From an uncultured Gammaproteobacteria bacterium (lineage in GTDB: Bacteria; Patescibacteriota; Microgenomatia; Daviesbacterales; UBA10151): a DNA stretch of 59,103 nt. Of this stretch, positions 1 to 17,037 are shown piece by piece; positions within the stretch are counted from its first letter, which is position 1; every line of letters starts with the position of its first letter. The notes under the pieces were generated by a model. It worked only from the letters and a program-made list of their open reading frames with translations, searched no databases and was not told the DNA's origin. A program made the translations under genes and the position numbers. The DNA is taken from contig CAYQAW010000007.1 in NCBI GenBank assembly GCA_964415615.1, positions 1 through 59,103 of the forward strand. The letters are read 5' to 3'.

Positions 1-112
1 ATTTCTCGTGAGGCAATGAATCAATTTCATTCGGATTTTAGGTGAGTCATATCGCCTCCTGTTTAATTCCCTTTTAATTTGGTAAAATTATCCTTGGTTG
101 GACGAGGAATTT

Positions 113-188
113 GCCGATGTAGCTTAAATGGATAAAGCAATGCTTTTGTAAAGCAAAGACTACCGAATCATACTCGGTCATCGGCTCA
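113..188 (+). tRNA. tRNA-Thr(UGU) with atypical T-loop
   Basis: Cloverleaf: acceptor GCCGATG/CATCGGC, D stem GCTT/AAGC, anticodon loop TT-TGT-AA (stem TGCT/AGCA plus an A.A mismatch), T stem ACCGA/TCGGT with loop ATCATAC; no encoded CCA. Confidence 0.75.
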
Positions 189-764
189 GACTGTTTTAAC
201 CTTTTTAAGTATTTTTTTCCAGGCAATCTTGCCTACTAAATAAATCAGTAACAACCCTACCAATTCTAAAATTATTGAGCCTGTTTTAGCATAATGCTTA
301 CTAAAAATATCTGTCAAATTATCAGAAAATCTCTGTGTTAAAGAAACCCAAAATGTATAACTAATAAGTCTTCCTACAAAAAAAGACCCAGCCAAAAGCT
401 TAATTTTGACCTTTGCCAAACCTGCTGCTATAAAAACATCATTAGAAGGAATTGGTAAAAAAGCATAAGCTACCACTAAAGGAATAGTTATGCGTCTGTT
501 GCGGTTTAAATACTCTCCAATGCTGGCATAATTTTCCTGTGAATCAGCAGACAAAATCCTTCTAAAATATTTTCTGGAGATACCTGCCAGAACAACACGC
601 CCTAAAGTAGCACAGCTTGCCCCGATTAAAACAACTGAAATCAGCAAGAGATCATACTTTGTCACAAAAAATGCCAACACTGTCCAAGTTGGAGGCATAA
701 AAGCTGGAATAATATTTAAACCCAAAACTAAGCTTGCAAGTAGCACATAAGACCCTAAAATCAT
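186..764 (-). CDS. Integral membrane protein, VTT/DedA(SNARE-associated)-like
   Basis: 192 aa, several hydrophobic helices, 'IPAFMPPTW' and 'FFVGRLISY' segments resemble DedA-type proteins. Confidence 0.55.
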   Translation of the reverse strand: MILGSYVLLASLVLGLNIIPAFMPPTWTVLAFFVTKYDLLLISVVLIGASCATLGRVVLAGISRKYFRRILSADSQENYASIGEYLNRNRRITIPLVVAYAFLPIPSNDVFIAAGLAKVKIKLLAGSFFVGRLISYTFWVSLTQRFSDNLTDIFSKHYAKTGSIILELVGLLLIYLVGKIAWKKILKKVKTV

Positions 765-786
765 ATATCTAGTTTACCAGAATCTA

Positions 787-795
787 TGCTAAAAT
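787..795 (+). promoter_or_regulatory. Extended -10 promoter (TGcTAAAAT) for the tRNA-Thr(GGU) locus
   Basis: TGnTAAAAT about 10 nt upstream of the first tRNA 5'-end copy at 805. Confidence 0.45.
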
Positions 796-804
796 GTCTT
801 TTAT

Positions 805-948
805 GCCGACATGGCTCAGTGGGTTAAAGTGAGCAACCTCACTTTAACGGGATAACGACAAACAAGTCCGCGTTCAGCGGACAACTTTAAAAAGTTGTTA
901 TCCCAGGAAAAGCATTGTGCATATTGTTAAGCCGACATGGCTCAGTGG
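805..948 (+). repeat. 18-bp direct repeat of the tRNA 5' end (805-822 = 931-948) flanking a 108-nt structured insert
   Basis: GCCGACATGGCTCAGTGG occurs twice; the insert has hairpins 823-848 and 849-904. Confidence 0.9.
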
Positions 949-1005
949 TAGAGCACGATCTTGGTAAGATCGGGGTCGCGGGTTCAATTCCCGCTGTCGG
1001 CTCCA
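931..1005 (+). tRNA. tRNA-Thr(GGU)
   Basis: Canonical cloverleaf GCCGACA/TGTCGGC, anticodon arm CGATC-TTGGTAA-GATCG, T loop TTCAATT, encoded CCA. Confidence 0.97.
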
Positions 1006-2585
1006 AATGAAACTGGAAGGGTATAATTTGCCTGTTTAGGCTGTTGTATCGATCCATCTTTGAGTCCGACTAACCCGTTACTTTCAAAAAGCTCATTTTG
1101 CTTATTTCTAAGAAAGATAAAAGCAGATTTGGCTTCTATAAAAAGCTTTTTGTCTTTTAATCTCAGGTCCGACCCGAGAATTTGCAGTACCATCCTTTTA
1201 ACATAAGGATCTTTACTATTAAATAACTCCTGTATTTTAGTGGCAAAACTCATGGTGTCATCTATCACCTGTCCCCAATAAGAAATCCTATCTGAACTAA
1301 TTTGGTCCTTAATTTCATTTTCTTCTTTTAATATCTCAGCAATTTTAGGTTTGATTTCTGCCTCAGAATAAAGCCCGTCTATCTTCATGGCATACACAAC
1401 CTCTTTCCTTTTATCCAGCTCCTGCAATCTCTTGGTTAGCATTTCCTTACGCTTTCGTTCAAATTCAAATTCTTCTTGGTTTCTTCTTCTTAAAGCTCCC
1501 TTTACCCAATCTATAAACCTTGGATGTAGCTCCAAATTGTTTATGTAAGCTTTCACCTGATCTTCCAGTTGTTCTGCTGGTAAGTAATGCTGAGTGCATT
1601 TAATACCTTTATTTTTCTTGCACCTGTAATAACAAAACTCATGTGATGTGCCGTTCTTATATTGCTTTAATTTCCTATCTCCCGTAACTGTTCCTCCGCA
1701 TTCGGCACATTTAATTGCCCGCGCTAGCGGTAAAGGCTCCCTTTTATCATAATCTTCATATCTTCCACCATATTTACCAGTAATAATCCTTTGGACTTTT
1801 TCATATTCTTCATAAGTAATCATAGCGTTGTGGATACCCTTATGAACTGCTCCTGAGTAATAAAAATGTCCAGTGTAAAATACGTTATGGAAGAACCTAA
1901 AAGCAGCTGTTTTTGAAATTTTGCCACCCTTTTTATCTCTTAATCCCATTTCAGTAATTTCTGCTAAAGATTCTTCAACAGTATATTTGCCAGTAAGCAT
2001 CATCTCCCACCACTTTTTGCATAAATCATACCTCTCAGGGTCATCTACAATGCTTTTTTCACCCTTTATCTCCCCAACATTAAGATAGCCTAATGGAGCT
2101 GTTCCTGGCCTTAATCCTTTTGCCACCTTTGACATCAACCCCCGCTTTACATCTTTGGATAACTTGAGGCTAAAATCTGTGGACATGCCAAACTCAATGA
2201 GAAGCATAAACCAATTTGAAGAATCATACATGGTATACGGAGTAACAATCCTAAGTCCTTTATTTTGAACCAAATCTATGATTTCAGCTCCATCTTTTAA
2301 GTTTCTGGCTAACCTGTTAGCTGCCCAACAAACCACAACTCTGGCTTTACCCTTCTTTAACAGGTCAAGCATTTTATAAAACTCCACTCTTTTACCTGCT
2401 ACTTTGGCTGATTTTTCTTCTTTAAAGTGGGGAGCAACTAGAGTGAGTTCATCATCTTCAATAAGCCTATTACATTCACTAATCTGGTCATCCAATGACA
2501 AAACTTGCTTTTTCTTATCCTCTTCTGACTTTCTGGAATAAGTAACAGCTAAATTATTCATATCATTTTTATTTTCATTATCCAT
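984..2585 (-). CDS. Large serine recombinase (resolvase + recombinase + Zn-ribbon + coiled coil)
   Basis: 'YSRKS' catalytic Ser motif, 'NRLARN', 'CAECGG...YYRC...C' zinc ribbon; last codons overlap the tRNA 3' end. Confidence 0.93.
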   Translation of the reverse strand: MDNENKNDMNNLAVTYSRKSEEDKKKQVLSLDDQISECNRLIEDDELTLVAPHFKEEKSAKVAGKRVEFYKMLDLLKKGKARVVVCWAANRLARNLKDGAEIIDLVQNKGLRIVTPYTMYDSSNWFMLLIEFGMSTDFSLKLSKDVKRGLMSKVAKGLRPGTAPLGYLNVGEIKGEKSIVDDPERYDLCKKWWEMMLTGKYTVEESLAEITEMGLRDKKGGKISKTAAFRFFHNVFYTGHFYYSGAVHKGIHNAMITYEEYEKVQRIITGKYGGRYEDYDKREPLPLARAIKCAECGGTVTGDRKLKQYKNGTSHEFCYYRCKKNKGIKCTQHYLPAEQLEDQVKAYINNLELHPRFIDWVKGALRRRNQEEFEFERKRKEMLTKRLQELDKRKEVVYAMKIDGLYSEAEIKPKIAEILKEENEIKDQISSDRISYWGQVIDDTMSFATKIQELFNSKDPYVKRMVLQILGSDLRLKDKKLFIEAKSAFIFLRNKQNELFESNGLVGLKDGSIQQPKQANYTLPVSFGADSGN

Positions 2586-2760
2586 TACTTTGTACCATTT
2601 TCTTATGTGTTTTCATAGTCTCTGCATTCGCCTTAATCAGTCCTTCAAACAGCATTATTAGTCTGGAACCTTGGTCTAAAGCCTGAGCATCAGTCAATTC
2701 AATACCGTAGACTTCTAAAACCAACCTTTTAAACTCCACAACCTCCTCATGCGTTAACAT
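2578..2760 (-). CDS. Small hypothetical protein coupled to the recombinase gene
   Basis: 60 aa, overlaps both neighbours in a tight minus-strand operon. Confidence 0.65.
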   Translation of the reverse strand: MLTHEEVVEFKRLVLEVYGIELTDAQALDQGSRLIMLFEGLIKANAETMKTHKKMVQSNG

Positions 2761-4174
2761 GCTCCCTCCCCGAATAGTATTCTTCAGCTGTGTTTTTTAT
2801 AAACTTGAATTCTTCCTCAATAAACCAGTTAAATTCAGGCTTTAAAGTCATTACTTTTGACGGCCTTCCTGATGCAACAGACTCTTCATCAGTAAGGTCA
2901 ACAAGCTTGAGGATTTTTAAAACCTCCATCTCTTTTAAAGCTGTTGGTCTTGAGCAATTAAGTTTAGTTAATAACTGTTCGCTGCCTATTTCTCCGTCAT
3001 TCTCAATAAGAATTCTGAATAATCTGGACCTGGTTAAAGGAGCTGAATCTAAAGTAATACTTAAAACAATTCCCAGATCATCATGGTTTATATTTGTTCT
3101 ACCAGATATTAAAGCATGACCTCTTGCTAAGTTATACAAAATCTGAGAAATCCTATCAGGCATTTCAATAATTGGCTCTTGGTAGCTGTATTCATCGCTT
3201 CCACCAAAATCTTCTTTCCAAACATTAATAGAACCTCTAAGTCTAGCCAGCAAATTAGCACAACGGGTAATTATTCTTAAGCAATCTTCAGGATCATCAG
3301 CTTTATTCCATTCAACACCATCTGGGTATTTTGACCAAAGTGTTTTTAAGAAATCTTGAGTTGCTTGACTGCAAACTTTTTGCTTTTCTTTCCAAGATTT
3401 AGAAACAAGCTGATTTGATAACTCCTGTTCACTCTTATCCTTTGATTTAAGATTAAAGAAAAATAATCTTGACCCTAAATTACCCATTAACTTAAAAACT
3501 TTTGGAGGAATAGGAGTTGAGGCTGCTAGCATCATAAAGGAGTAATCCCCGCTATAACCTCTTTGGCCGTGAACTCCTGCATGAAGCTCTAAACCCTCAC
3601 CATCCAACACTCTGGTTAAAACCCCCATACTCCTTAACAAGTCATCATCTCTTAATCCAAATAACGGAGCTAAATCACGAATAATTAAGACTTTGTCTTT
3701 AATTCTAGGTAATAAATCTACATCTTTTAGCTTTTCTGTTTTAACATTGGCTGCCTGAGAGACAAAAGAAGCAGGGGTAAAGTTGTCTAAGGTAATAGAC
3801 TTATCAAATCCTGAGAAAAAATTTAAGGTAATGGTCTTGCCAGCACTAGGCACATCAATAAAAACAGTAGCCTCAGGATTTGTAATATCTTTAATAAGAA
3901 GTTGGCCAAAATGACTTGCTCCTACCTCAGCTGCCATAAGCAGATTGGGGAAGTTCGCTCTAATCTGTTCTCTCCAATTAGGATACTCTAATAAATTAAA
4001 GGTTTCTGACGTTGTGCTTTCATCATGGTCTTCTTCGATAACCTGCTCCTCTTTTAAATCATCCGACACAGCGTCAAATTGGCTTAATTTATTACCATTA
4101 CTGTCCAAATCCTCTTTTAGGAAAGTATTTAATTCACCAATCTCATCATTTGTTAAGATTTCTCCGTTGCCCAT
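2747..4174 (-). CDS. P-loop/AAA+-like ATPase with C-terminal winged helix (replication-helicase-like)
   Basis: Walker A-like 'DVPSAGKT', Walker B-like 'VLIIRDL', 'LGSRLFF' Arg-finger-like segment, C-terminal HTH-like 'SRPTALKEMEVL...GRP'. Confidence 0.6.
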   Translation of the reverse strand: MGNGEILTNDEIGELNTFLKEDLDSNGNKLSQFDAVSDDLKEEQVIEEDHDESTTSETFNLLEYPNWREQIRANFPNLLMAAEVGASHFGQLLIKDITNPEATVFIDVPSAGKTITLNFFSGFDKSITLDNFTPASFVSQAANVKTEKLKDVDLLPRIKDKVLIIRDLAPLFGLRDDDLLRSMGVLTRVLDGEGLELHAGVHGQRGYSGDYSFMMLAASTPIPPKVFKLMGNLGSRLFFFNLKSKDKSEQELSNQLVSKSWKEKQKVCSQATQDFLKTLWSKYPDGVEWNKADDPEDCLRIITRCANLLARLRGSINVWKEDFGGSDEYSYQEPIIEMPDRISQILYNLARGHALISGRTNINHDDLGIVLSITLDSAPLTRSRLFRILIENDGEIGSEQLLTKLNCSRPTALKEMEVLKILKLVDLTDEESVASGRPSKVMTLKPEFNWFIEEEFKFIKNTAEEYYSGREHVNA

Positions 4175-4175
4175 A

Positions 4176-4442
4176 TTACCTTCTTTCGGAATAAAGCCTT
4201 GCTTTAATAGATTTAAGCTGATTGAAGTAAGCCTGGGGCTCTACCCGCACCTTACCATGCCAATAGGACTCAATGAGTTGATCTAATTGTCTGTCTCTTT
4301 TAAAAACAAATTGAGCCTTATAGGGGTTCTGAGTTTTATCAATCGTCTCAAGAGGAAAATAAAGTGCCAGAACACTGGTTAAAGCCAAGTCCGAAGTTTT
4401 GTAATAATCATCATCTTTAGGATCTACATTAGTAATACTCAT
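4176..4442 (-). CDS. DUF5659-like small phage/element protein
   Basis: 'YKTSDLALTSVL...QFVF...YWHGKVRVEPQAYFNQLKSIKARL' pattern. Confidence 0.65.
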   Translation of the reverse strand: MSITNVDPKDDDYYKTSDLALTSVLALYFPLETIDKTQNPYKAQFVFKRDRQLDQLIESYWHGKVRVEPQAYFNQLKSIKARLYSERR

Positions 4443-4631
4443 CTTAGTTATTTAAGCCAAAATGTAAATTTTGACTTTCTAAGATGGATCATAAAAAATC
4501 CTCTTATTTTTAACGTTTGAGAGGAGACCAGAGGATATTACAGTATTAAATTAGCTTATTTAGATTGTTGTATCAATCTCATTTTATACTTCCTCTAAAA
4601 TATTGAAATCCTTATCCTCTAAGTTCCTCTG

Positions 4632-6026
4632 TTAAGATATGAACTCTGCCTTGAGCTGTGTGTTATTTTCATTAAAGCAGAACTTAATCTCCTTTTCTTT
4701 ATCTTTTAACTTACCTATCTTCTGTAACTCCTTTATGGCATATTGAATAATTTCTATTTTCCTAGCTTGAGCTGTATTCCAATTTAATAGCTTATGATCA
4801 TCTTTGTCTTTCTGTTGCCTAATCGCTTCAAAAACTGCATCTATTGTCTTAGCTAAGCTAATTGGTTCTAGAAGGCACTGAATTAATCTAAAAGGTCTTC
4901 CTGTTGCCAAACCAATTTTCTTTTTAGTTCCATGTTTACCAAATTTCAAATACCCCGTTCTTCTTTCAACAATACAATAAGGCTTATTTATAGGCACTGA
5001 CGTATCTGAAGGAGCTTCACTTTTATTTTGCTCTTGGTAAGAAGTAGCCAGTTTTTTATAATTATTTCCTAGTTCTTCATATTTTTTTGGCAATAATTCA
5101 TGGTTAATAAACTGTAGATCATACCATCTGTCCTTCCTTTCCCAGTCTTTAAAAAAGCTTTCCCTCTTAAATCCATCAATAACTCCATCAATCAATTCAA
5201 CGCTTCGGTCTTTAACAGTTAATCGTGCTACAGGTACAAAGATACAATCTGGCCGACTATGTGATTCATATACCTCCCATATAGACTGAAGAGCGTCCCA
5301 CTTTTGCTCGAAAGCTCGTCTTGTAGCGGTATCGTCAAAGGGTAATTCTGTTTCCTCAATTTCTCTTTCTTCTGGTGTCAATAAATATAAAACTAGCCGT
5401 TTAAGCTTATTGATTATTTCGCCTTTAGTCATAATACCTGCTTCTTCAGGGAAAATTTCTTTAAAAAAAGTTATGTACCCCTTTAGTGAGTTATATAAAC
5501 CCCAAATCTCTTCTTTTTCCTTTTCTTCATATTTACGGCTCTGAATCTGGTAATTTCTATATGTCGGAAACACTTCAGTAGCTTTGTCGTAATCCAAATA
5601 CCAAAATCCTTCTCGCTCACTCATTAAATTATCAAAAATTTTAAGTTTCCCAGTGTTCTTACACATTTCAAGAGTAGTACGTATGGCATGGTATAAAGCA
5701 TCAGGCAAACTTTCGCTAGTTAAAACTTCACCTCTCTTGATTTGTTTGTAACGAACAGCATCTATTGAAAGTGGTATTTGAGCTTTACTTGCCTCACCTT
5801 CAATCTTATTAAATAGGGGTTCAATTTCATTTACTGCTTCCTCGCCAAGCTTATTGAGCTGTATATATTCCTTTTCGTACTCTTCTTCCAATTTTCTAAT
5901 TTTTTCTGGATTTTCTATAACAAGAAGATTAAGAAACTGTCTGAAGGTGGGAAAGAATTCCTGATTGGAAATAGTAGATAATTCACTTAACCAATGGCTG
6001 TAAACCTGATGCTTATTAATGTCCAT
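4632..6026 (-). CDS. Hypothetical protein, possible C-terminal DNA-binding (wHTH-like) domain
   Basis: 464-aa open frame, helical N-terminus, basic C-terminal domain. Confidence 0.6.
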   Translation of the reverse strand: MDINKHQVYSHWLSELSTISNQEFFPTFRQFLNLLVIENPEKIRKLEEEYEKEYIQLNKLGEEAVNEIEPLFNKIEGEASKAQIPLSIDAVRYKQIKRGEVLTSESLPDALYHAIRTTLEMCKNTGKLKIFDNLMSEREGFWYLDYDKATEVFPTYRNYQIQSRKYEEKEKEEIWGLYNSLKGYITFFKEIFPEEAGIMTKGEIINKLKRLVLYLLTPEEREIEETELPFDDTATRRAFEQKWDALQSIWEVYESHSRPDCIFVPVARLTVKDRSVELIDGVIDGFKRESFFKDWERKDRWYDLQFINHELLPKKYEELGNNYKKLATSYQEQNKSEAPSDTSVPINKPYCIVERRTGYLKFGKHGTKKKIGLATGRPFRLIQCLLEPISLAKTIDAVFEAIRQQKDKDDHKLLNWNTAQARKIEIIQYAIKELQKIGKLKDKEKEIKFCFNENNTQLKAEFIS

Positions 6027-6123
6027 TTTAATCTTAATAATCGAGGTAATTTTACCTGATTTTAGCTTAATAAACTATATTGATTGGTCAAATTGCTAAG
6101 GAGATACTGACTATACTAAAAGA

Positions 6124-9123
6124 TTAAGCAGCCTTGAGTTTATCCCACTGTCTTTGCATGTCTAAAATAACTCTCTCTTCTTGAGTAACTGCTTCACCTA
6201 CTTCACCTGCTTCAAACTTATTAGCTATTCGAGATACTCGGTCAATCACTGTAACAAATAGTGATTGCATAGCATGTCTAAATTCATTGTCGTGATCCAT
6301 TGACCAGTTATGTGCCACCTCATGAACAAAGGTACTCATAGCTTCTGTAAATTGAGTATTAAAAAGAGATTCATGCATTCCGATAGCTTTTTGTCCCAAA
6401 TTAATTCCCTTACTCCCAGTTCCTCTATATAAAAATAAATCATTTGGTAGGGCAACACCTGTAGTCAATTGCGTATATAATCTTAGCAAACCTAATTGAG
6501 CAAGTTGTCTTTCATTTGGATCAAATACAACCTCAAAATCATCAATCTCATCTTCGGAGGGACTCATTCGGTCAACAATATCTGAGAGCTTTCCAGCAAG
6601 TGCTCCAAGAATTTTATCTTCTGGTGATTCATCACGTATCACGTAAACACTCGCAATCTCAGCTTGGTTTTGTTCGTTTATCAACTCGAGTAAATGTCTC
6701 CCTGTAAGATAACCAGCATTATCACCTAACTGCCCATAAAATTGCCCAGAGTTTCTCCATTGTAAATATTTTTCAAAAACAGTTGATCCTGTTAGAGCTT
6801 GGGGCTGAACTTCTGGCACTAATTCCTCAAGTTTATTAACTGCATCTAAAATACCAGGCAATTGAGCCTCCATTTGCCCTACTCTTGCTTTTTCGGCATC
6901 AGACATCGTTGCTTCTTTATCAACTATAAAACCCTTACTTTCGACTTCAGGTAATTCAGGTTGAGATACAGGAACACGCCCAAATTCTTGTTTTAGTTGC
7001 TCCCTTTGTTGAATAATAAGCCTGTCCTCATCTGTTAAGTCAGCAGAATTTTTTCCTATTGCGTTTAGATAAAGTCTTTCTTGTTCAGGAGTCCATGCTT
7101 TTACTTGTATTGCACGGTCTATATCTATTTCTGTAACTCTATTATCCTCACCTTCAGATTGAGGAGTAATATTAACTACATTTGGGGTGGTACCCTCAAC
7201 AAACCCTCCTTGTACAATACCTGAAACACTTGGTCCAGGTGAAATTGGCGAACGTTGAAATACATCTTTAAATGACTGGAGGTATTGATCTGTAAGCTCC
7301 ACTTCGACAAATAAGCCTTCTTCATTTTCATTCTGAACATTACGTGCCAAGAGAATCCTTTCTTTTACAACTTGGTCGTAATCCATCCCAAAAGTGGTAA
7401 CAAATTCACCTTGTGAGGTAAAAATTTTCTTAAATATTCTATTTTGGAGTCCATAAGCCGCCATTCCTCTTAACAAATATAAAAGTTTTTGATCGCCTTC
7501 TTGTGGTTTTGGAAGAGCATGAAAAAGAAGTTCTTTTTTAATACCCCCTTTTAATTTAATCCTAATAGTATCTGGCTTACCTTCTCTTGATTCAACTGAG
7601 ATTACTTGTGGCGATAAGCGCTCACCTATCAAATGAATGAATTCAGCTGGATCTCTTATGGTAGAAAAATCTTCATGAGCTACTTCCATACCATATTCTT
7701 GAGCAAATCGCTCTTTTTGATATTGTGGGAGTGCTGGAGCTTCGTTGCTAGCTGCCTCCACTGCACTTAGTTTGCTACTAGCTCTGGGCATTCCAATAGA
7801 TTCCATATAAGATGGGCAAATTACAAATCCCTTTTCTTCCAACTCATGAACTTGACTTTCACTTACTCCTCGATCCCAAGCGATATAATTTTTTCCACCA
7901 AAGAGTTGTTGATATTCTGCCTTATCATATCCTCTATAAGGTAATTGCCCCACTAATTTCTCGATTACAACAAACGCTCCTTTTCTTTCAAAACTGTAAC
8001 CTGCGTCAACATGGCCTGCCCAAAGATACTCTGAACGCTTTACTTGCTCAACAAGATCACTTTTTTCCATTCCTCTGACCATATCATCAAGGTAGTAACC
8101 CAAATCAAAGGAAGTTACAGGAGGTCTATCTATACTCATTCTATATTCCAGATTATTTAATTGAATTGTTACTCCTTCTGGTCCCATCCAATAATTTTCG
8201 GCAGAAGTACCCTTATCTTTATAATTCATAACTTGGCCGTTAATGAATAAACGTCCACGGGTAGGAACTAAACCTTCAGATTTAGGAAGCCATTTTATTG
8301 CTCCATGTCTATTTTGATAATCCATACTCTGTAAGTAGGGATTTTCCCTTGATACTCCTAATGTTGGAAGTTGCTGTAATGCTTTTATAACTTCTGCATT
8401 GTCAGTTTCAATAATATATGCGTTTTTGCCAGTCTTCGGCGCTTCCTGAACATCTGCTAGCAGCCAGTCATGCTTTACCACATAAGCGGGATTTTGACCA
8501 TGTAGACTTATCCATTCTCTATTTACATCAACGGCTTTTGCTAATCTATAATCAACAGTCCATCCTTCCCCTTGAATCTGAAATTTATGTACTCCAAAAT
8601 CTCTTAGGAAACGTATCGCTGTTTGTTTCAAGCCAATCCCATTGCCTCCTGCGGTATTCATATTTTCAGGTTTATCAGAATGGGGACTTAATACCCCTGT
8701 AGGATCTTCAAACGGCCAGTCGCCTTCAATCCGAAATCTTTTAGCTCCATGACGCGCATCTTCAACTATAAACCTCACTCCATTTAATGTGCCTGGATCT
8801 TGGGGGTTATGATCTACAAAGTTTTGCACTAATTCTCTTGTTAGCCATGCAGAGTTATATTCGTCTCTAGATTTATCTAAAAAGCTATCTGTTGCTATAG
8901 CATGCGCATCTATCCCTCGTTCTTTAAAAAAATATTGCAGAAGTTTTTGGTCAGTAATGACACCTTCTATATGTGCTTCTGCAATAGCTCCTTCTTCGGG
9001 AGGCGTACCTGGTGTTGTTGGGGTAGGTGTTCCTTTTCTGCCAAAAAACCTATCTCTAAATCCAGCAAACCTTGACCTTCCACCAGATGCTTCAGCATTT
9101 TCTGTCCTCATGGGATCGGCCAT
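6124..9123 (-). CDS. GHKL-type ATPase fused to a C-terminal HEXXH (zincin-like) metallopeptidase domain
   Basis: 'RELVQNFVDH' N-box, 'AGGNGIGLK' G-box, C-terminal 'FVHEVAHNWSMDHDNEF'. Confidence 0.65.
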   Translation of the reverse strand: MADPMRTENAEASGGRSRFAGFRDRFFGRKGTPTPTTPGTPPEEGAIAEAHIEGVITDQKLLQYFFKERGIDAHAIATDSFLDKSRDEYNSAWLTRELVQNFVDHNPQDPGTLNGVRFIVEDARHGAKRFRIEGDWPFEDPTGVLSPHSDKPENMNTAGGNGIGLKQTAIRFLRDFGVHKFQIQGEGWTVDYRLAKAVDVNREWISLHGQNPAYVVKHDWLLADVQEAPKTGKNAYIIETDNAEVIKALQQLPTLGVSRENPYLQSMDYQNRHGAIKWLPKSEGLVPTRGRLFINGQVMNYKDKGTSAENYWMGPEGVTIQLNNLEYRMSIDRPPVTSFDLGYYLDDMVRGMEKSDLVEQVKRSEYLWAGHVDAGYSFERKGAFVVIEKLVGQLPYRGYDKAEYQQLFGGKNYIAWDRGVSESQVHELEEKGFVICPSYMESIGMPRASSKLSAVEAASNEAPALPQYQKERFAQEYGMEVAHEDFSTIRDPAEFIHLIGERLSPQVISVESREGKPDTIRIKLKGGIKKELLFHALPKPQEGDQKLLYLLRGMAAYGLQNRIFKKIFTSQGEFVTTFGMDYDQVVKERILLARNVQNENEEGLFVEVELTDQYLQSFKDVFQRSPISPGPSVSGIVQGGFVEGTTPNVVNITPQSEGEDNRVTEIDIDRAIQVKAWTPEQERLYLNAIGKNSADLTDEDRLIIQQREQLKQEFGRVPVSQPELPEVESKGFIVDKEATMSDAEKARVGQMEAQLPGILDAVNKLEELVPEVQPQALTGSTVFEKYLQWRNSGQFYGQLGDNAGYLTGRHLLELINEQNQAEIASVYVIRDESPEDKILGALAGKLSDIVDRMSPSEDEIDDFEVVFDPNERQLAQLGLLRLYTQLTTGVALPNDLFLYRGTGSKGINLGQKAIGMHESLFNTQFTEAMSTFVHEVAHNWSMDHDNEFRHAMQSLFVTVIDRVSRIANKFEAGEVGEAVTQEERVILDMQRQWDKLKAA

Positions 9124-9183
9124 ATTATATCCATAGTAGCATAAATTACCAGAGTAGGTGTGCTATAATCGTCTTAAGTCACT

Positions 9184-10071
9184 ATGTCAGCACAAAGACA
9201 ACCAGAGTTTGTAAGTGGTGTAAAAAATGTAGCTGCTCCTGATGGATCTTCTTTTGACATCCTAAGAGGAGCATCTGAAGTTACGACTAATCTCAGAGGT
9301 AATGCTTTAGTTCGAATGAGAGAAATAGTACGAGTTAACGAACCAGAAATCCTCCATTTCCTCAATGCTGGACCTGGAATATCCGCTGAGTATGCTATGT
9401 CATCAGGAATTATGCATTCTAAGAAGCCAGGAGTTAAAGCAGACTTAACCAAAATATCTGTTGAAGAACATCTAGCTGAAGGTGATCGTTGGGGAGCAGT
9501 ACATATGCTCGCTTATGCAAAAGCGGCAGAACTACCACTAATTGAATACGGGGAACCTTTTGTAGCAGAGCAATACGATATTTCATTAGAAGAAGGTGAT
9601 CCTGGTGAAGCTTGGCGTATTGCCCGCACCATGCTATCAGAAGGAGACAAGATAGCAAAAATAGAGCCCGAAGTACAAGAGCATGCAACTCAAGCTTGGG
9701 CTGCCAGAGAAAAAAGGGCATTTGAGCTTCATGCAGAAGAAGTATTAGCTAGAACTGATCAGCATGAAGGTGCAAGAGAAGACTGGGACCTTCGAAGTAT
9801 CTTTGAAGAATTAAGATTCCGCCAAGATGGTGGTTTTAATAGTGAGATCCCTAGTGAATTAGCTAAAAGAGTTGCGGAAAAGGTTGTTCAACAAGACTTG
9901 CAAACAAAAGGCAGAGAATGGACTGCTATTATTGATGCAACTGAAGCAAAAATGTCCAATGAATATATAGCTCAACTTAGAGGTCATGTTCCGTCAACAG
10001 GTTTTGAGAAAGTTAAAAATTGGTGGAGTGGAATTAAAGCTAGACTAGAGACTATAATCCCTCGGCAATAA
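9184..10071 (+). CDS. Hypothetical helical protein
   Basis: 295-aa ORF divergent from the 999-aa gene across 60 bp. Confidence 0.65.
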   Translation: MSAQRQPEFVSGVKNVAAPDGSSFDILRGASEVTTNLRGNALVRMREIVRVNEPEILHFLNAGPGISAEYAMSSGIMHSKKPGVKADLTKISVEEHLAEGDRWGAVHMLAYAKAAELPLIEYGEPFVAEQYDISLEEGDPGEAWRIARTMLSEGDKIAKIEPEVQEHATQAWAAREKRAFELHAEEVLARTDQHEGAREDWDLRSIFEELRFRQDGGFNSEIPSELAKRVAEKVVQQDLQTKGREWTAIIDATEAKMSNEYIAQLRGHVPSTGFEKVKNWWSGIKARLETIIPRQ

Positions 10072-10191
10072 TAGTTATCCCTTTGATAAGCGCAATTCTT
10101 TATTGCTTTTTTGAGTGATCCGTAGTAAAATATAGACAAATCGAACCGAAAACTGGCCGTATCGGTAAGCTGATTGAAAAATCTAGGTTCT

Positions 10192-10217
10192 ACCACCCCT
10201 TTGTGGGTGGTTTTTTT
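10192..10217 (+). terminator. Intrinsic terminator-like hairpin (may also belong to a DUF3800-associated RNA on the minus strand)
   Basis: ACCACCC-ctttgt-GGGTGGT followed by a T run. Confidence 0.6.
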
Positions 10218-10221
10218 ATGA

Positions 10222-10800
10222 TTAAACCTCAACTAAGCTTTCTTCTTTTATAGCTTCCTTAAACAGTTTTTCCGAATCTTCAGCCTCTTTATTTAATACA
10301 TCTCTTACAAATCCAGCTATAGCATCAGCTAGTCTTGTTAACGAATTATTTTCATCCCTGCTTACTCCTTGAACCTTTCTAGTAGGAACACCAAGTTTTC
10401 TAAGCTCGCTTCCATATTCCTGCCTTTTGGATTTAGCCAAACCATCAACATAAACTAAGGTGGTATATTCATGAGGCTCCTTAAAATGAATAGCTTTAGC
10501 AATACCCATAATTGTTGCCATATCATAATTGACCTGTTCTTTATAAACTGTGTAGCGAAGTTTGCCTCTAAAAACCTTACAAGAAAAGACTCTCTTCATA
10601 TAATTTAGTCTGCGGTTATGTTCAGCCTTACCCCATTTAAATTTTCCTTTACCGCTATCCTTTTCTATTTCTTCACAAAGATTTAATAATTCATCCCGTT
10701 CCTTGTCAGTAACCACTATAGAGACAACAAACACATCACCTTTTGTATCCTGACCAGATTCATCCACATAACAATAAAGTTTTTGCTTTACATCATTCAT
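10222..10800 (-). CDS. DUF3800 family protein (RNase H-like fold)
   Basis: 'CYVDESG', 'VYVDG' and 'RLADAIAG' acidic motifs. Confidence 0.85.
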   Translation of the reverse strand: MNDVKQKLYCYVDESGQDTKGDVFVVSIVVTDKERDELLNLCEEIEKDSGKGKFKWGKAEHNRRLNYMKRVFSCKVFRGKLRYTVYKEQVNYDMATIMGIAKAIHFKEPHEYTTLVYVDGLAKSKRQEYGSELRKLGVPTRKVQGVSRDENNSLTRLADAIAGFVRDVLNKEAEDSEKLFKEAIKEESLVEV

Positions 10801-10825
10801 ATTAGGATCATACCATTTTCAATAG

Positions 10826-12412
10826 TTAGCTTTCTCTAGCTTCTGCCTCTAATCTCGCTAGCTGTTTTGCTACCCAATTATTATCTACTCCATGCTCAGC
10901 TTTTAACAGATATTCATCCATATCTTCTAATTCAAACTCACAAAAGCCAAAGTCAGTTCTATTTAATTGTTTGAGAGCGTCTTTGATTCTATTATTATGC
11001 GTATTGATGACATTTTGAACTGCTTCTTCAATTCTCCCGATAGAAATATCTTGAGCTAGAGGGTCTTTATTTACAATATCCATTCCATCAAAGTATTTCC
11101 TCTCGATTTCTTCAATTAAAGCTTTATAGTTTACGATTTTTCTAATTAAAATTGTTGCCTGTTCCACAAAATTTACTATCATTTCCTCATAAGTATCTTT
11201 GGAGAACTTAAGAGTTATTTTATTAGCATCGGTGTCTTTATTAATCGCTTGGAAGGGTGCTAACATTCTCAGTAAATCCAACACACTATCAACTTTTGTT
11301 TGCCCATCCTTATCAGGACCAGCAAGAAAAGGCATATTCTCGTTATGTGGGGTGGCAATTACAATATGACGCCAGTTATCACTTTTTAATGCCTGACCAG
11401 AAGATGCAACTTTTCCATCGGCATATCCTATTTCCAAACAATCCTCATTTAATGGATTCCAATGAATATGACTTGATCCTTCCTCACCTGCAAACTTTTG
11501 ATGTCTTTCAGTCCAATCATAGTAACTACCAGCCTCAATTCCATTATCTTTGGCTTTAAGTTGGCCTACTTTTACTGCTTCTAATAGCCTTAATCTTTCT
11601 TCTTCTATAGTTTTTTGCCAAAGATCAAACTCTTCTTGAGTGGGAATCATAAAATAATCTTTATAGCTTTTCTTAATTTCCTCATGTAATTTGTCTTCTG
11701 TTAAATCTACATATTTGCTTACCCAACTAAAAAGTGGTTCATCTCCCTCTAGTCTTGTTTTTCTTTCTTTATATTCTTCAATTCCCTTTTTAATCTCTTG
11801 CAGCTTTTCATTAAATAAATCCTCTTCGGTTTTGCCATAATTTTCTATAAAGTCCAAATATTCATCTAAATCTCCACCTTCTAAAATCTTTCCCTCTTTA
11901 ATTAGTCTGGCGTAAGCTTCTTCCTCAGCTAAGTTATACCTATCATGAAGCTGGATTACTTGAGCTCTTTCAAATTCTCTTGCTGATAAAACACCCTCGT
12001 CATAATCCTTCTTACTTACAATTACTGGAACTCTGGATAATTCGTCAATCATATGCTGAATAAGAAAATCAATAGAAATTAAATAGCTTAAAGCTCTTAT
12101 ATCTCCAGCCATAAGCTCTATTCTGGTTAAATAATCACACATTTTGCCAATAATCTCTTTCCAAACAGCTTTATGGAGACTAACTAAATAATTATATTCA
12201 GAAGCATCTGATGATGGGCAAGAAGCTATAATCATTCTTATATCGGCTTGAGTAGACAAAGTAGGCCTTGTATCTATTTCTCCTTCGTCATATTTTTGAG
12301 CTTCTCCTATAGGTAATTCGTTTAACCCTTTAAGTTCTAGAGAAATTACCAGTTTTGCTCTTTCTTTTGGAGTCATCGCAGATGATATTTTGCTTAAATC
12401 TAAGTTAGTCAT
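10826..12412 (-). CDS. Hypothetical acidic helical protein
   Basis: 528-aa ORF directly abutting the 127-aa gene. Confidence 0.65.
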   Translation of the reverse strand: MTNLDLSKISSAMTPKERAKLVISLELKGLNELPIGEAQKYDEGEIDTRPTLSTQADIRMIIASCPSSDASEYNYLVSLHKAVWKEIIGKMCDYLTRIELMAGDIRALSYLISIDFLIQHMIDELSRVPVIVSKKDYDEGVLSAREFERAQVIQLHDRYNLAEEEAYARLIKEGKILEGGDLDEYLDFIENYGKTEEDLFNEKLQEIKKGIEEYKERKTRLEGDEPLFSWVSKYVDLTEDKLHEEIKKSYKDYFMIPTQEEFDLWQKTIEEERLRLLEAVKVGQLKAKDNGIEAGSYYDWTERHQKFAGEEGSSHIHWNPLNEDCLEIGYADGKVASSGQALKSDNWRHIVIATPHNENMPFLAGPDKDGQTKVDSVLDLLRMLAPFQAINKDTDANKITLKFSKDTYEEMIVNFVEQATILIRKIVNYKALIEEIERKYFDGMDIVNKDPLAQDISIGRIEEAVQNVINTHNNRIKDALKQLNRTDFGFCEFELEDMDEYLLKAEHGVDNNWVAKQLARLEAEARES

Positions 12413-12796
12413 CTAAAATTTCCTCCCTTTTGAGGCTATTTTTCTTTGAAATAAGACACTCTCAATCATTTCAACTCTTTGATCCATATCTGAAACTTCT
12501 AAAGCCTTAAGCATGTGTCCTGCTAAATAACCAATGGTATTGGCAATATTGGGCGGAATTTCACCACTTCTTACACTATTGATGGTGCTTTCCAAAAGAT
12601 CTACCACTTGTTGAGGAGTTTTTATTTCTAGGGGAACAAGTGCTAAAACAGTCTTTTTGCTAGCATATCCACCTTTGGTAACTGCAAGTTGTTTGTCCTG
12701 TTGAGTCTCTGGATTATGGCTAAAGCAAAAGGTAGCCTCCTTGATTGACATGGCTCCACATTGCTCACCATCTTCTTTTATGTACTGACACTGCAT
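12413..12796 (-). CDS. CCCH Zn-finger protein, small-terminase-like
   Basis: N-terminal C-x9-C-x10-C-x2-H, then 'KGG' and a helical tail. Confidence 0.45.
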   Translation of the reverse strand: MQCQYIKEDGEQCGAMSIKEATFCFSHNPETQQDKQLAVTKGGYASKKTVLALVPLEIKTPQQVVDLLESTINSVRSGEIPPNIANTIGYLAGHMLKALEVSDMDQRVEMIESVLFQRKIASKGRKF

Positions 12797-13018
12797 AAGC
12801 TACGCTTACGGGGTATACCCCTAAATCCTCCTTTTCATGCGTAATTAAAACTTTTTATATTTAAATGATTCTTTAGAAGATCAAGTTGAAATGCTAGAAG
12901 TTTGGCTTGTTCTGAGGTATCATTAAATAGGTTTTGGAGTCCGACCCTAATACCGACTCCCGCTCATAGTCTCGTCCTTTTTGTTTCACAAAAAGAGACG
13001 GACTCATTAAACAGCGCA

Positions 13019-13273
13019 ATGTATACACTATACGTTCTTAAAAGCCTCAAGGATGGAAGGACGTATGTTGGTTGTACTAAAGATTTTGAAAATAGGCTTA
13101 GGGAACACAATGCTGGTGAAGTGAAATCTACAAAAAGTAGGATTCCATTTGTGCTTTGGTACAAAGAAGGATATCAGGATAAATATGAAGCTTTTAAACG
13201 CGAACAACATTTTAAAACTTCCTGGGGGCGTAGACAGTTAAGGAAAATTCTTGATAACTTGCCAGAAGCGTAA
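13019..13273 (+). CDS. Small GIY-YIG nuclease (UPF0213-like)
   Basis: 'MYTLYVLKS...TYVG.T...RLREHNAG...REQHFK'; ATG at 13019 preferred over the track start 12902. Confidence 0.88.
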   Translation: MYTLYVLKSLKDGRTYVGCTKDFENRLREHNAGEVKSTKSRIPFVLWYKEGYQDKYEAFKREQHFKTSWGRRQLRKILDNLPEA

Positions 13274-13295
13274 CTATCTAGTAAACTCTTAATAT

Positions 13296-14000
13296 ATGGG
13301 AAACGATACAAACAATGATGAACTAAATAAGACATCACCGTTATCTTCAAAATCATCAAAAACAAATTATGTCGTACTTGTATTAACAGTTTTAGTTTGT
13401 TCTCTCGTTTTTGGTGCGGGAGGTTATTACTTAGGAACAAAATCATCAGTTAATAAGCAGGTTACCACCAAAATACCTTCACCTCAAAATATCGTAAAAG
13501 AGGAAGTAAAAAAGTCAAATTTGCCATTTCCAATAGTACGAGTTAAAAAACAGGTAAGTTACAGTGACTGGACTCGGTACAAATATAAGTCAGGTTATAG
13601 TTTTTATTACCCAAATGATTGGTTTATTAGTGAAGAAGGGCTGCAAGTTCAAAATTGGGATCCTAAAAGCCCTAATCTTAGACCAAGGCCCCTTTCGGGA
13701 GAAGAGACTAAATGGGATTTAAGTTTTAATGAACAACCCCTCTCTTCTTTCGAGGGGGTGATGACCCAAGCTGATACAAGTGTAAGCAACTGGGATTCAA
13801 TAGAAGTTTCATCAACTTTAAAAGGTTGGCCTGTTTATTTTGCTTATAAAGAAAAAACTGAGCCAATGGGAAATCCTTATTTGGTTGCCGTTGTTGTCAC
13901 CCCTGAAAACAAAATATTATCATGGCATGGCTTTTCAGGTGACGCTAAAAGTGTGAATATAGAAAAATTAAAACAAATTGTAGAAAGCCTACAAAAATAA
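13296..14000 (+). CDS. Membrane-anchored exported protein (PsbP-like fold possible)
   Basis: N-terminal TM helix, 'YSFYYPNDW' motif. Confidence 0.6.
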   Translation: MGNDTNNDELNKTSPLSSKSSKTNYVVLVLTVLVCSLVFGAGGYYLGTKSSVNKQVTTKIPSPQNIVKEEVKKSNLPFPIVRVKKQVSYSDWTRYKYKSGYSFYYPNDWFISEEGLQVQNWDPKSPNLRPRPLSGEETKWDLSFNEQPLSSFEGVMTQADTSVSNWDSIEVSSTLKGWPVYFAYKEKTEPMGNPYLVAVVVTPENKILSWHGFSGDAKSVNIEKLKQIVESLQK

Positions 14001-14161
14001 AGCAGTCCGTCTTGGCAGCAAGGATCGATTTTCTAATATGCATACTTATACATTTTTTAGTCCTAAAGTATAGACTAAATCAGGTAAAAGGCCGTCAGAT
14101 AGGAATAATTTGAAGAATTCTGGCAGTCTGGCTAAGACCTCGTCAGGAGCTCCCAGTCCAG

Positions 14162-14196
14162 ATTCTCCACACAGACAGAAAATCTGTATGGAGAAT
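14162..14196. terminator. Hairpin between convergent genes
   Basis: ATTCTCCA-cACAGA...TCTGTa-TGGAGAAT. Confidence 0.5.
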
Positions 14197-14226
14197 TTAA
14201 GATAATCCTTAATAGATCCTCTGCTC

Positions 14227-14454
14227 TTACATTGTTTGATAAGGCTGATCCATTTCTTTCTTACCCCAACCTAATACCTTCATCACATCATCAGCAGAGG
14301 TATAAACCTTATCTGCAAGATGCTCTTCAAACCATTTTTTATCTTCCTTGGAAAAATCAGAAAGGTTTTCACACTCTTTAACCAAATCCTCTTTGCTGGC
14401 TGGATAACTCTGATGGTTTTTCAGATGATCCATGGCTCCTGACATATTTTGCAT
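14227..14454 (-). CDS. DUF2795-like small protein
   Basis: 'YPASKEDLV...YTSADDV' pattern. Confidence 0.55.
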   Translation of the reverse strand: MQNMSGAMDHLKNHQSYPASKEDLVKECENLSDFSKEDKKWFEEHLADKVYTSADDVMKVLGWGKKEMDQPYQTM

Positions 14455-14560
14455 TTATTCTCACCCCCTTCCAGTACCTGCAAGTATCTAATATTCTTTT
14501 AAGATTTACAGAATTTTTCAGTAAGAAATAGGTGATAAATTATGATATAATCCATTGATT

Positions 14561-14728
14561 ATGGCAAAAAAAGGCAACAGGCAGTTATTTAGCTTTCAGT
14601 GTTCAACTTGTAAAAGTAAGAACTATACTGCTACAAAAAACACAGTAAATATTAAAGAAAAGCTTGCTTTGAGTAAATTTTGTAAACACTGCAGAAAATC
14701 CACAGAACACAAAGAAGTAAAACTCTAA
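14561..14728 (+). CDS. rpmG: 50S ribosomal protein L33 (Zn-ribbon C+ form); not in the ORF track
   Basis: Hand translation MAKKGNRQLFSFQCSTCKSKNYTATKNTVNIKEKLALSKFCKHCRKSTEHKEVKL. Confidence 0.95.
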   Translation: MAKKGNRQLFSFQCSTCKSKNYTATKNTVNIKEKLALSKFCKHCRKSTEHKEVKL

Positions 14729-14782
14729 AATCCAGGTTACAGTTTACAGTTAACAGTTAACAGGTTACAATTAACCCAGCTT

Positions 14783-14853
14783 AGGGATGTGATGAAATGG
14801 TATCATAGAGGTCTCCAAAACCTTTTTTTCAGGTCCGAATCCTGACATCCCTG
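14783..14853 (+). tRNA. tRNA-Trp(CCA)
   Basis: AGGGATG/CATCCCT acceptor, anticodon loop CT-CCA-AA, T arm TCAGG-TCCGAAT-CCTGA; usual position after rpmG. Confidence 0.9.
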
Positions 14854-14858
14854 CCCAT

Positions 14859-15566
14859 TTAGAAATTTACCTTAATTCTGGCAGATTGGACAAATAAAGT
14901 TTTGCCTTGAGTGCTTTTTATTTGGATCGAATAAGTCTTCTGCCCGCTGGGCAACTTGAATGTTGCCGAAGTCTGACTACCAAAACTAGTTGAAGTTGTG
15001 CTCAACTCCGAAGAAATAGCACTATTGTCTGTTATATTATATAACCTGACAGATCCTATACCTGCTGCTTCTGTTAACCTGAAATTTGCCTCAAGTTGCA
15101 TACTGGAATAACCTGAATAATTATCCGTATTAATTGAGATCTGATATTCAGCCAAGCTTTCCCAATTCTGATTATCCCAAGGCCCTCCACCAGAACCTAA
15201 AGGAATATATAAAGGATATTTGGCACTGCTCACTGCTGGAGCAGGAGTGGCTTTTTCCAAAACTGCAATACGGGTTTTTAAATCAATAATTGTTGATTCT
15301 AAATCCTTAATTTTTGAATCAGCAGAACTGGAAATATTAACTTGTGGACTTGGGGATTTCAGATTATTAACCTGGGGCACAGGTTCTGCTGTGCTGACTG
15401 CAGGCAAAGTTTTAGGTACTTCTACAGGAGCTTGAACTTGTTGATCAACTTGAGAATTTATCTTTTGTGGTGTTTGCAAGCCCTGTTTGCCTGCCAGATA
15501 TCTCCAATAACCCAGCCCAGAAACTATAATCACAGGTATTAAAATAAAAGGCAGCAGTCTAATCAT
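14859..15566 (-). CDS. Membrane-anchored hypothetical protein
   Basis: N-terminal TM, Pro-rich linker, short coiled coil, beta-rich C-terminal domain. Confidence 0.65.
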   Translation of the reverse strand: MIRLLPFILIPVIIVSGLGYWRYLAGKQGLQTPQKINSQVDQQVQAPVEVPKTLPAVSTAEPVPQVNNLKSPSPQVNISSSADSKIKDLESTIIDLKTRIAVLEKATPAPAVSSAKYPLYIPLGSGGGPWDNQNWESLAEYQISINTDNYSGYSSMQLEANFRLTEAAGIGSVRLYNITDNSAISSELSTTSTSFGSQTSATFKLPSGQKTYSIQIKSTQGKTLFVQSARIKVNF

Positions 15567-17017: not shown

Positions 17018-17037
17018 CTCTGGGCTAATATTAAATC

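Follow-up and report, generated by a model that had tools for sequence, protein, structure and literature searches.

Known attachment sites within integrase genes

Integrative elements whose recombination alters the integrase gene itself have been described for tyrosine recombinases. In myxophage Mx8 (IntP/IntX), attP is reported to lie within the integrase coding sequence, and integration gives a recombinant gene whose prophage form has a different C-terminus (passages of PMC6070905 and PMC4383910); Mx8 Int is presented there as a tyrosine recombinase (PMC4383910). Here, we analysed a stretch of 59,103 nucleotides (the window, W), which is the whole contig C7 of a bacterial genome of 1.2 Mb in 40 contigs with a GC content of 0.36 (G000). 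Positions 1004–12965 are likely to be an 11,962-bp integrative element at the 3′ end of a tRNA-Thr(GGT) gene that was inserted by its own large serine recombinase (LSR). attP of this element appears to lie inside the LSR open reading frame (ORF), which would lose a C-terminal tail on integration. An attP in an integrase gene with a change of the C-terminus is thus already known from tyrosine recombinases; by analogy, the same arrangement seems to be present here in an LSR.

Like Mx8, the element would carry attP in its integrase gene and give this gene a new 3′ end upon integration. Unlike Mx8 Int, the enzyme is of the serine type, with serine recombinase domains only and no sign of tyrosine chemistry, and the lost part consists of a linker and a conserved segment of ~33 residues that is predicted to be helical. 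The archaeal SSV-type (‘suicidal’) integrases also have the recombination site within the integrase ORF (part of PMC7253208). Those enzymes are tyrosine recombinases whose gene is split in two, whereas in the window only the C-terminal tail would be swapped and the catalytic and DNA-binding domains stay intact. In the integration-dependent immunity of mycobacteriophages, the gene crossed by attP is that of the repressor, the integrase is of the tyrosine type and the removed part is a degradation tag. There, integration likewise changes the C-terminus of the protein whose gene contains attP, and with it how this protein behaves (as outlined in PMC8092301). In the window, attP would instead cross the integrase gene, and the tails carry no ssrA-like terminal AA.

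The enzyme of the window resembles the integrases of phiC31, Bxb1 and SPbeta in its domain order (Resolvase, Recombinase, zinc ribbon with a coiled-coil insertion), in a short core and in a small partner protein modelled at the base of the coiled coil. To our knowledge, canonical serine integrases target protein-coding genes or intergenic sites, and an attP inside the integrase ORF has not been described for them. According to the Islander paper, no serine integrase is known to have a tRNA gene as its target (PMC4383910), a survey of M. abscessus places its three Int-S sites inside ORFs in the part that deals with them (PMC8092301), and the main text of a survey of 6,207 LSRs does not contain the word tRNA (PMC10083194). 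Our literature search gave no report of LSRs that use tRNA genes as targets, nor of a serine integrase whose ORF extends across attP; the supplementary tables of the large surveys were outside its scope and may list such cases. As in the tDNA islands of the Islander paper, in the part that describes them (PMC4383910), the island is located at the 3′ part of a tRNA gene, the integrase gene lies beside the tRNA and a tRNA-like fragment is found at the far end. The present element differs from them in its serine integrase and in a far-end fragment that seems to be a look-alike carried by the element and does not have to match the target. No fragment of the same tDNA was found at the far end of W, where the piece is Gly-like, the target is tRNA-Thr and only GCTC is shared.

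Boundaries of the element at tRNA-Thr(GGT)

The following features define the ends of the element.

931–1005, plus strand: tRNA-Thr(GGT), predicted integration target and B arm of attL (ARAGORN; Rfam tRNA, 70.5 bits)
1000–1003: putative left crossover region GCTC, the only in-register identity with the right end (attL/attR comparison, six elements)
12936–12965, plus strand: putative P arm of attR, element-borne and similar to a tRNA 3′ half (T-loop-like, 3′ strand of the T-stem, 3′ strand of the acceptor), ending in GCTC at 12962–12965

An empty site is found in a genome of the same genus (G003), which carries tRNA-Thr(TGT), a DedA remnant, tRNA-Thr(GGT), 134 bp, rpmG, one extra ORF and tRNA-Trp. 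The window is flanked by the same genes, but the distance from tRNA-Thr(GGT) to rpmG (about 14561–14728) is 13.5 kb. The insertion is therefore far larger than 3.5 kb, the size of the circle implied in a preliminary description of this locus, which had suggested two 26-nt direct repeats (1025–1050 and 4549–4574) as possible partner attachment sites and had proposed an empty-site comparison as a check. This comparison places the boundaries elsewhere than the repeats, and together with the conserved right end it puts the right boundary at 12962–12965.

A blastn-short search with 780–1110 revealed no second copy of the tRNA 3′ end on the contig. For the right end, each element was scanned for matches to its own tRNA-proximal 85 nt. 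The element of G007 (L041) carries a 16-nt copy of the 3′ end of its tRNA-Gly about 10.4 kb away. A right end of the form ...CTGAGGTATCATT..GTTTTGGAGTCCGAC, followed by a tRNA-like piece, is common to W (12901–12965), L041 and L042. In L042 this piece stops about 18 nt short of the next host tRNA gene and is therefore the true end of the element. In all three, the tRNA-like piece has a Gly-type acceptor strand (C[AT]CCCGCTC). Since W and L042 are located in tRNA-Thr genes, the piece is an element-carried P arm and not a displaced host fragment. From these sequence comparisons, the element is taken to span about 1004–12965. Outside of it, up to rpmG, are a GIY-YIG gene (13019–13273), an ORF of 234 aa and a small minus-strand ORF.

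The ends have a short common core and no long terminal direct repeats. Read in the integrase sense, attL and attR share TTGGAGCGGGTGAGGG in L041 (16–17 nt), TGGAGCGGGTGA in L057 (12 nt), TGGAGCGGGA in L056 (10 nt) and GTGAGGC in L061, and only GAGC in W and L042. The core is thus 4 nt in W and L042 and 10–17 nt where the P arm matches the target tRNA. In all six elements, the identity block starts at the tRNA 3′ terminus. A crossover in GCTC (1000–1003 and 12962–12965) places the right-end tail in frame after G528-A529 in W, L041, L042 and L057, and the join predicted for L057 is closely similar to that of the un-integrated relative P0121 described below. By analogy among these elements, strand exchange most likely takes place in GCTC at the acceptor end of the tRNA; the last two tRNA bases (CA, 1004–1005) would then derive from the element. 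A second GAGTCCGAC (1062–1070), which codes for VGL inside the gene, was considered as a core, but the 56 nt that separate it from the tRNA are conserved between elements inserted in different tRNAs, and it was therefore dropped.

Upstream of the target, the first 18 nt of tRNA-Thr(GGT) occur a second time without mismatch (805–822 = 931–948), behind a native-looking upstream region. This copy is followed by an insert of ~107 nt (together 805–930) that forms two strong hairpins (–47.5 kcal/mol, z –6.4, none of 200 shuffles as good). The core of this insert occurs three times in the genome and has no match in Rfam. At C2:122784 it again comes after a tRNA-5′-like fragment, here of 19 nt, and is itself followed by a complete tRNA. 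Possibly, this is a miniature insert with the tRNA D-loop as its target.

The recombinase gene and its C-terminal tail

984–2585, minus strand: LSR of 533 aa in its short, integrated form; the ORF ends 22 nt inside the tRNA, with its stop codon in the T-loop (Pfam, PHROGs)
12835–12963, minus strand: tail-coding frame with no start codon, 42 codons plus stop (coding part 12838–12963), predicted to continue the recombinase ORF only in the excised circle

The domains match those expected for an LSR: an N-terminal resolvase domain with the nucleophilic serine (Resolvase PF00239, 2.6e-20, residues 13–157), a Recombinase domain (PF07508, 6.9e-6) and a zinc ribbon (Zn_ribbon_recom PF13408, 2.2e-10) with a coiled-coil insertion. 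The protein also matches the integrase family phrog_95 (8.8e-59). R18, K19 and S20 are invariant across 25 recombinase homologues, and S20 is probably the catalytic nucleophile. The coiled coil was seen as long helices (342–389, 394–415 and 420–441) in a model of the relative P0032, and not of the window's own protein. In the window, the ORF passes through the left 26-nt copy into tRNA-Thr(GGT), where its tail reads IQQPKQANYTLPVSFGADSGN and a stop codon follows, as had been described before.

At the right end of seven integrated elements (W, L004, L041, L042, L056, L057 and L061), tblastn revealed a minus-strand open frame of 42–50 codons. In the window it reads AGVGIRVGLQNLFNDTSEQAKLLAFQLDLLKNHLNIKSFNYA, followed by a stop codon. 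An in-frame ATG, GTG or TTG before the conserved part is absent in five of the seven copies. Over 27 codons, pN/pS is 0.18–0.41 in all 15 pairs of six copies. Given the missing start codon and the purifying selection, the tail frame is translated, yet unable to start alone.

Relatives in the un-integrated state carry this tail joined to the recombinase. A search with the window tail in a set of 5.8 billion proteins gave P0121 (E 2.2e-7, 73% identity), a 77-aa fragment in which the recombinase tail ...SEAKYDSIISNFPLGAGNG (...SNFPLGAGNG) continues directly into IRVGLQNLFND...LLAFQLELLRNHL. P0032 (566 aa, on a contig of 12,364 nt) also ends in the conserved tail and not in a tRNA-derived one. In the metagenome loci L062 and L063 the tail is within the ORF and no tRNA was called in either locus; the L063 ORF crosses a single piece similar to a tRNA 3′ half. 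By contrast, among the best 47 recombinase homologues the printed tails are, in our reading, nearly all reverse-read tRNA 3′ ends. The ORF is thus continuous across attP in the free relatives P0121, P0032 and L062/L063 and has another, tRNA-derived 3′ end in integrated ones. Since the tail is joined to the ORF in un-integrated relatives, attP is located inside the ORF and the free form is the longer one. We infer the same change of the 3′ end for the window itself, where the circular-form recombinase is predicted to be about 37 residues longer (~570 versus 533 aa), not shorter. The boundaries of the element, a continuous ORF in un-integrated relatives and coding constraint on the tail are shown by the sequences, whereas the precise crossover point, the parts played by the operator and by the 60-aa protein, and a possible influence of the tail on activity are inferred.

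The preliminary description had suggested an attachment site inside the serine recombinase ORF and a C-terminus that depends on the state of integration, and this idea is supported by the right-end tail and the un-integrated relatives. It had also expected a shorter C-terminus upon circularization, which the conserved tail without a start codon reverses. Partly supported, its interpretation was right in principle and wrong in detail.

A tail relic is present in G002 (L004, contig C25, 7113–7229). It has 82% protein identity to that of the window and lies 5.8 kb beyond a DedA gene, with neither a recombinase nor tRNA-Thr(GGT) between the two. It looks like the remains of a decayed or replaced element.

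tRNA genes as targets of related recombinases

Contig C7 is contained in groundwater metagenomes, and one recombinase homologue carries the source label Candidatus Daviesbacteria. The closest recombinases are those of G068 (77%), G007 (69%), G078 (66%), G081 (49%), G069 (46%) and G005 (46%). Five of these six recombinase ORFs extend into or through a tRNA on the opposite strand (Thr-GGT, Gly-TCC, Thr-TGT, Gly-TCC and Gly-CCC); the sixth runs off its contig. The 3′ end of the ORF is also inside a tRNA in 10 of 15 closer metagenome relatives. When genome contigs were searched for further related loci, a single protein as query gave none and an alignment gave only three already-known genomes.

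For a broader view, we compiled 31 recombinase loci, namely the two paralogues of this genome and the best-matching loci from 96 genomes of the order. A tRNA on the opposite strand contains the end of the recombinase ORF in 18 of them, including both paralogues. In the remaining 13, three ORFs read across a tRNA, six run off the locus and four have no tRNA called at their end (among them L016, which passes through a tRNA at a more internal position). Target tRNAs include Thr, Gly, Gln, Leu, Ser, His, Lys, Glu, Pro and Phe. The two paralogues, which are the other full-length LSR genes of this genome, end inside tRNA-Gln(CTG) (G000:C1; L007, 1468–3129) and tRNA-Gly(CCC) (G000:C17; L008, 1387–2961).

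Two of the loci show further features. In L042 (G078:C5), a second, unrelated LSR (16581–18148, 25% identity) ends in the neighbouring tRNA-Trp; two such elements are therefore located at adjacent tRNAs. In L045/L016 (G005:C1), the 46%-identical recombinase ORF continues through tRNA-Gly(CCC) to 851–854 aa and ends in a PS-repeat.

A candidate directionality factor

2578–2760, minus strand: 60-aa protein, overlaps the recombinase start; candidate recombination directionality factor (RDF; blastp, alignment)

Homologues of the 60-aa protein are found at the same place beside the recombinase in six of six related loci. A complex model of the protein with recombinase residues 270–533 reached a score of 0.74, compared with 0.00 for the best of three controls. 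The mark used for such models was reached by 58 of 80 solved complexes and by 2 of 110 mismatched pairs. Contact agreement between the runs was at least 92% and the pLDDT of the partner at least 78. The modelled contacts (353–368, 436–441, 450–472 and 489–493) map to the base of the coiled coil and to the zinc ribbon; known RDFs are described as binding near this base (a section of PMC11722253). Its position and the model make the 60-aa protein a likely candidate for the directionality factor.

Proposed mechanism

In the proposed mechanism, the LSR (984–2585, minus strand) would insert the element at the 3′ end of tRNA-Thr(GGT). attP would be inside the recombinase ORF, with the last codons before the crossover as its gene-side arm. 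The other arm, which lies at the far right of the integrated element, resembles a tRNA 3′ half and then codes for the conserved tail of ~40 residues. In the excised circle, the ORF would continue past G528-A529 into this tail. In the integrated state it would enter the tRNA and stop in the T-loop, so that the conserved C-terminal helix is lost. The 60-aa protein encoded just upstream might serve as the directionality factor.

It is conceivable, although we lean against it, that the tail helix is a built-in state switch. The long form would be competent for integration or have its RDF groove filled in cis; integration would clip the helix, and the short form would act only with the 60-aa factor or not at all. 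This idea includes that a large clade of serine integrases in small-genome groundwater bacteria took over tRNA targets by means of an attP look-alike of the tRNA 3′ half. If true, it would be at odds with the literature, according to which tRNA genes are not used by serine integrases. Serine integrases are valued tools for genome engineering, and control of their one-way reaction is an active question. An integrase gene that is rewired by its own reaction, with the removed part conserved and under selection, provides a natural experiment on the role of the C-terminus. With tRNA genes as targets, an attP arm similar to a tRNA 3′ half seems to work across Thr, Gly, Lys and other tRNAs.

Several points weigh against parts of this proposal. 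The ends of W share only 4 nt, and the reading frame and the analogy to relatives were used to place the crossover. In the contigs of four runs (X1, X4, X5 and X6), neither a circle junction nor a precise empty site of this very element was found: on 1–15000 there was no joint from ~12965 to ~1003, no link between 1025–1050 and 4549–4574 and no precise skip from 1003 to 12966, which is weak evidence as only contigs were searched. One X6 contig (depth 9, side 25) tracks the window to 1003 and then jumps to 14634 in rpmG; we read it as a relative with an empty site. In the AlphaFold2 model of P0032 the core is confident and the tail consists of a low-confidence linker (491–529) and a helix (534–565); as pLDDT is below 50 over the tail (488–566), no fold, contacts or docking can be read from it. 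The G002 tail-coding relic has no recombinase nearby, and such relics can outlive the element. The score of the complex model may partly reflect likeness to solved integrase–RDF complexes. Finally, support for the operator proposed below comes from two independent elements and from a variant motif in a third one, and a protein that binds it was not identified.

The 26-nt repeat and a candidate operator

1025–1050, plus strand: left repeat copy, in the recombinase coding tail, 22–50 bp from the crossover
4549–4578: right repeat copy, with core 4559–4578 (TTTAGATTGTTGTATCAATC), an imperfect palindrome ATTG-N6-CAAT; intergenic, upstream of the operon; candidate operator

The repeat of the preliminary description is confirmed: the two 26-mers, 1025–1050 and 4549–4574, match at 21 of 26 positions in direct orientation and flank four ORFs (984–2585, 2578–2760, 2747–4174 and 4176–4442), all on the minus strand. 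The equivalent frame of the right copy reads IQQSK and a stop codon. The identity extends slightly past the 26-mers, to ...TGTTGTATC.ATC, and the best 20-nt core (1035–1054 versus 4559–4578) matches at 17 of 20 positions. When 984–1100 was compared with the whole window on the same strand, one diagonal of at least 21/26 was found; among 30 first-order Markov shuffles, one contained such a diagonal (mean 0.03). The 16-nt pattern TTTAGNNTGTTGTATC (two free positions, at most one mismatch) occurs twice in the window, with 0.04 expected and none of 100 shuffles reaching two; the loose pattern ATTGTNNTATCAA is not enriched there (3 found, 2.7 expected). The likeness is moderately unlikely to be due to chance, the pair having been chosen only after the whole window had been read.

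The right copy is situated in a gap of 190 nt between the gene of a 464-aa protein and the DUF5659 gene. Its core TTTAGATTGTTGTATCAATC is identical at 20 of 20 positions in the G007 element (L041, 14081–14100), where it is 1 nt away from a TTGACA-17-TACTGT promoter that faces an operon of a 158-aa ORF, DUF5659, the 60-aa protein and the recombinase. A variant site, GRTTGATATGACAATG, is present downstream of a TTGACA-17-TACRCT promoter in G007 (L041) and in L051. The four intergenic sites have TTT..ATTGT..TATCAA.C in common, which forms the imperfect ATTG-N6-CAAT dyad. The 20-mer 4559–4578 is thus a conserved dyad-symmetric site at or beside a promoter. In the window itself, a promoter scan of 4300–4800 gave three promoter-like sites (2.3 expected), none of them at the 20-mer, and searches with Pfam, PHROGs, PADLOC and NCBIfam revealed no DNA-binding family among the proteins of the element. 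The right copy is probably an operator of the operon from DUF5659 to the 60-aa protein and the recombinase, which agrees with the operator that the preliminary description had mentioned as an alternative. The 26-nt repeat is not an att pair. The likeness of the right copy to the recombinase 3′ end is either fortuitous or marks a weak second site.

Copies of the 20-mer TTTAGATTGTTGTATCAATC with 2–4 mismatches, together with AGGATTCGAACTCAT, are also found behind GIY-YIG genes at G000:C26 (~4900–5140) and C27 (~1–245). The GIY-YIG gene of the window is located directly to the right of attR and is similar to those on C26 and C27.

Alternative explanations

Both copies might be paired sites for one regulator or accessory factor encoded by the element, at the operon promoter and at attL/attP, which would couple integrase expression to recombination. 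Cox/Apl-type proteins provide such a coupling in P2 and 186. A search of both strands of the 1.2-Mb genome gave only two further sites that differ from the 20-mer by at most three mismatches; one is the integrase-side copy, which lies 30–50 bp away from this element's attL. For the integrase 3′ end of L041, too, the homologous site is the best match within the element (18/24). However, W and L041 are related and not independent cases. Among 11 related elements, an internal match of the integrase 3′ end was seen only in W (17/20) and, weaker, in L041 (15/20), and the pair is absent from the others: these have internal matches of 14–16/20 at unrelated places, three of the loci being too short to be informative. 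Each of the two integrase-side copies changes three positions that are invariant in the four intergenic sites, and the left copy is outside the canonical serine attP of ~50 bp (as given in a section of PMC11722253). We consider this coupling unlikely.

Another explanation places the crossover in the T-loop, so that the element supplies a new tRNA 3′ end and the right-end piece is the displaced host fragment, as in a classic tDNA island. This would fit the anatomy given for such islands in part of PMC4383910, and the right-end piece has TCGAATCCC in common with the target tRNA in L042 and 16 nt in L041. But the Gly-type acceptor piece of W and L042 is like that of L041 and travels with the element rather than with the tRNA-Thr target, the identity blocks begin exactly at the tRNA 3′ terminus, and in our reading a T-loop join in W would be out of frame with the tail unless it is placed in the T-stem. 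A T-loop crossover is therefore quite improbable.

That the right-end frame is a small gene of its own, or that its DNA is conserved solely for the binding of a protein, is very unlikely. The frame is 11 kb from the recombinase gene in every integrated copy, and L004 keeps the tail without a recombinase. Against this stand the start codon missing from most copies, synonymous sites near saturation (pS 0.31–0.90) versus pN of 0.11–0.28, and a contiguous ORF in P0121, P0032 and L062/L063.

Hardly tenable, finally, is an element of 3.5 kb with the 26-mers as attL and attR cores, carrying the recombinase, the 60-aa and 475-aa proteins and DUF5659, whose circle would shorten the protein to ...IQQSK: the repeat flanks exactly this operon, is rarely equalled in shuffles and has a frame that stops after IQQSK, but the empty site and the conserved right end place the boundaries elsewhere, sites of serine integrases have few bases in common (GCTC here; 5–8 bp in part of PMC8092301), the internal match is confined to W and weakly L041, and the invariant ends of the ATTG...CAAT motif are broken in the integrase-side copies. 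Boundaries away from the repeats and a lack of junctions across them, which the preliminary description had named as outcomes that would speak against it, are both what was found for its repeat-pair version, the junctions having been looked for in the contigs of four runs.

Other genes of the element

2747–4174, minus strand: 475-aa protein, family not known, with a P-loop-like SAGKT (no match in Pfam, PHROGs, PADLOC or NCBIfam)
4176–4442, minus strand: DUF5659 protein, first gene of the leftward integrase operon (Pfam PF18903, 1.8e-10), homologues in the L041 and L042 elements
4632–12796: cargo region with six ORFs
4632–6026, minus strand: cargo, 464 aa
6124–9123, minus strand: cargo, 999 aa
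9184–10071, plus strand: cargo, 295 aa
10222–10800, minus strand: cargo, DUF3800
10826–12412, minus strand: cargo, 528 aa
12413–12796, minus strand: cargo, 127 aa

No function could be assigned to the cargo ORFs with PADLOC, NCBIfam, PHROGs and Pfam. Pfam domain matches bear out two labels of the preliminary description, ‘serine recombinase’ and ‘DUF5659’; for the label ‘ATPase’, the 475-aa protein shows a P-loop-like ...SAGKT... in its translation and no family match. To the right of the element, the region 18300–54000 contains many dispersed repeats of ~40–90 nt with AGCTATCAG/TCAGTC-type units in both orientations (families D1–D6 and I1–I25).

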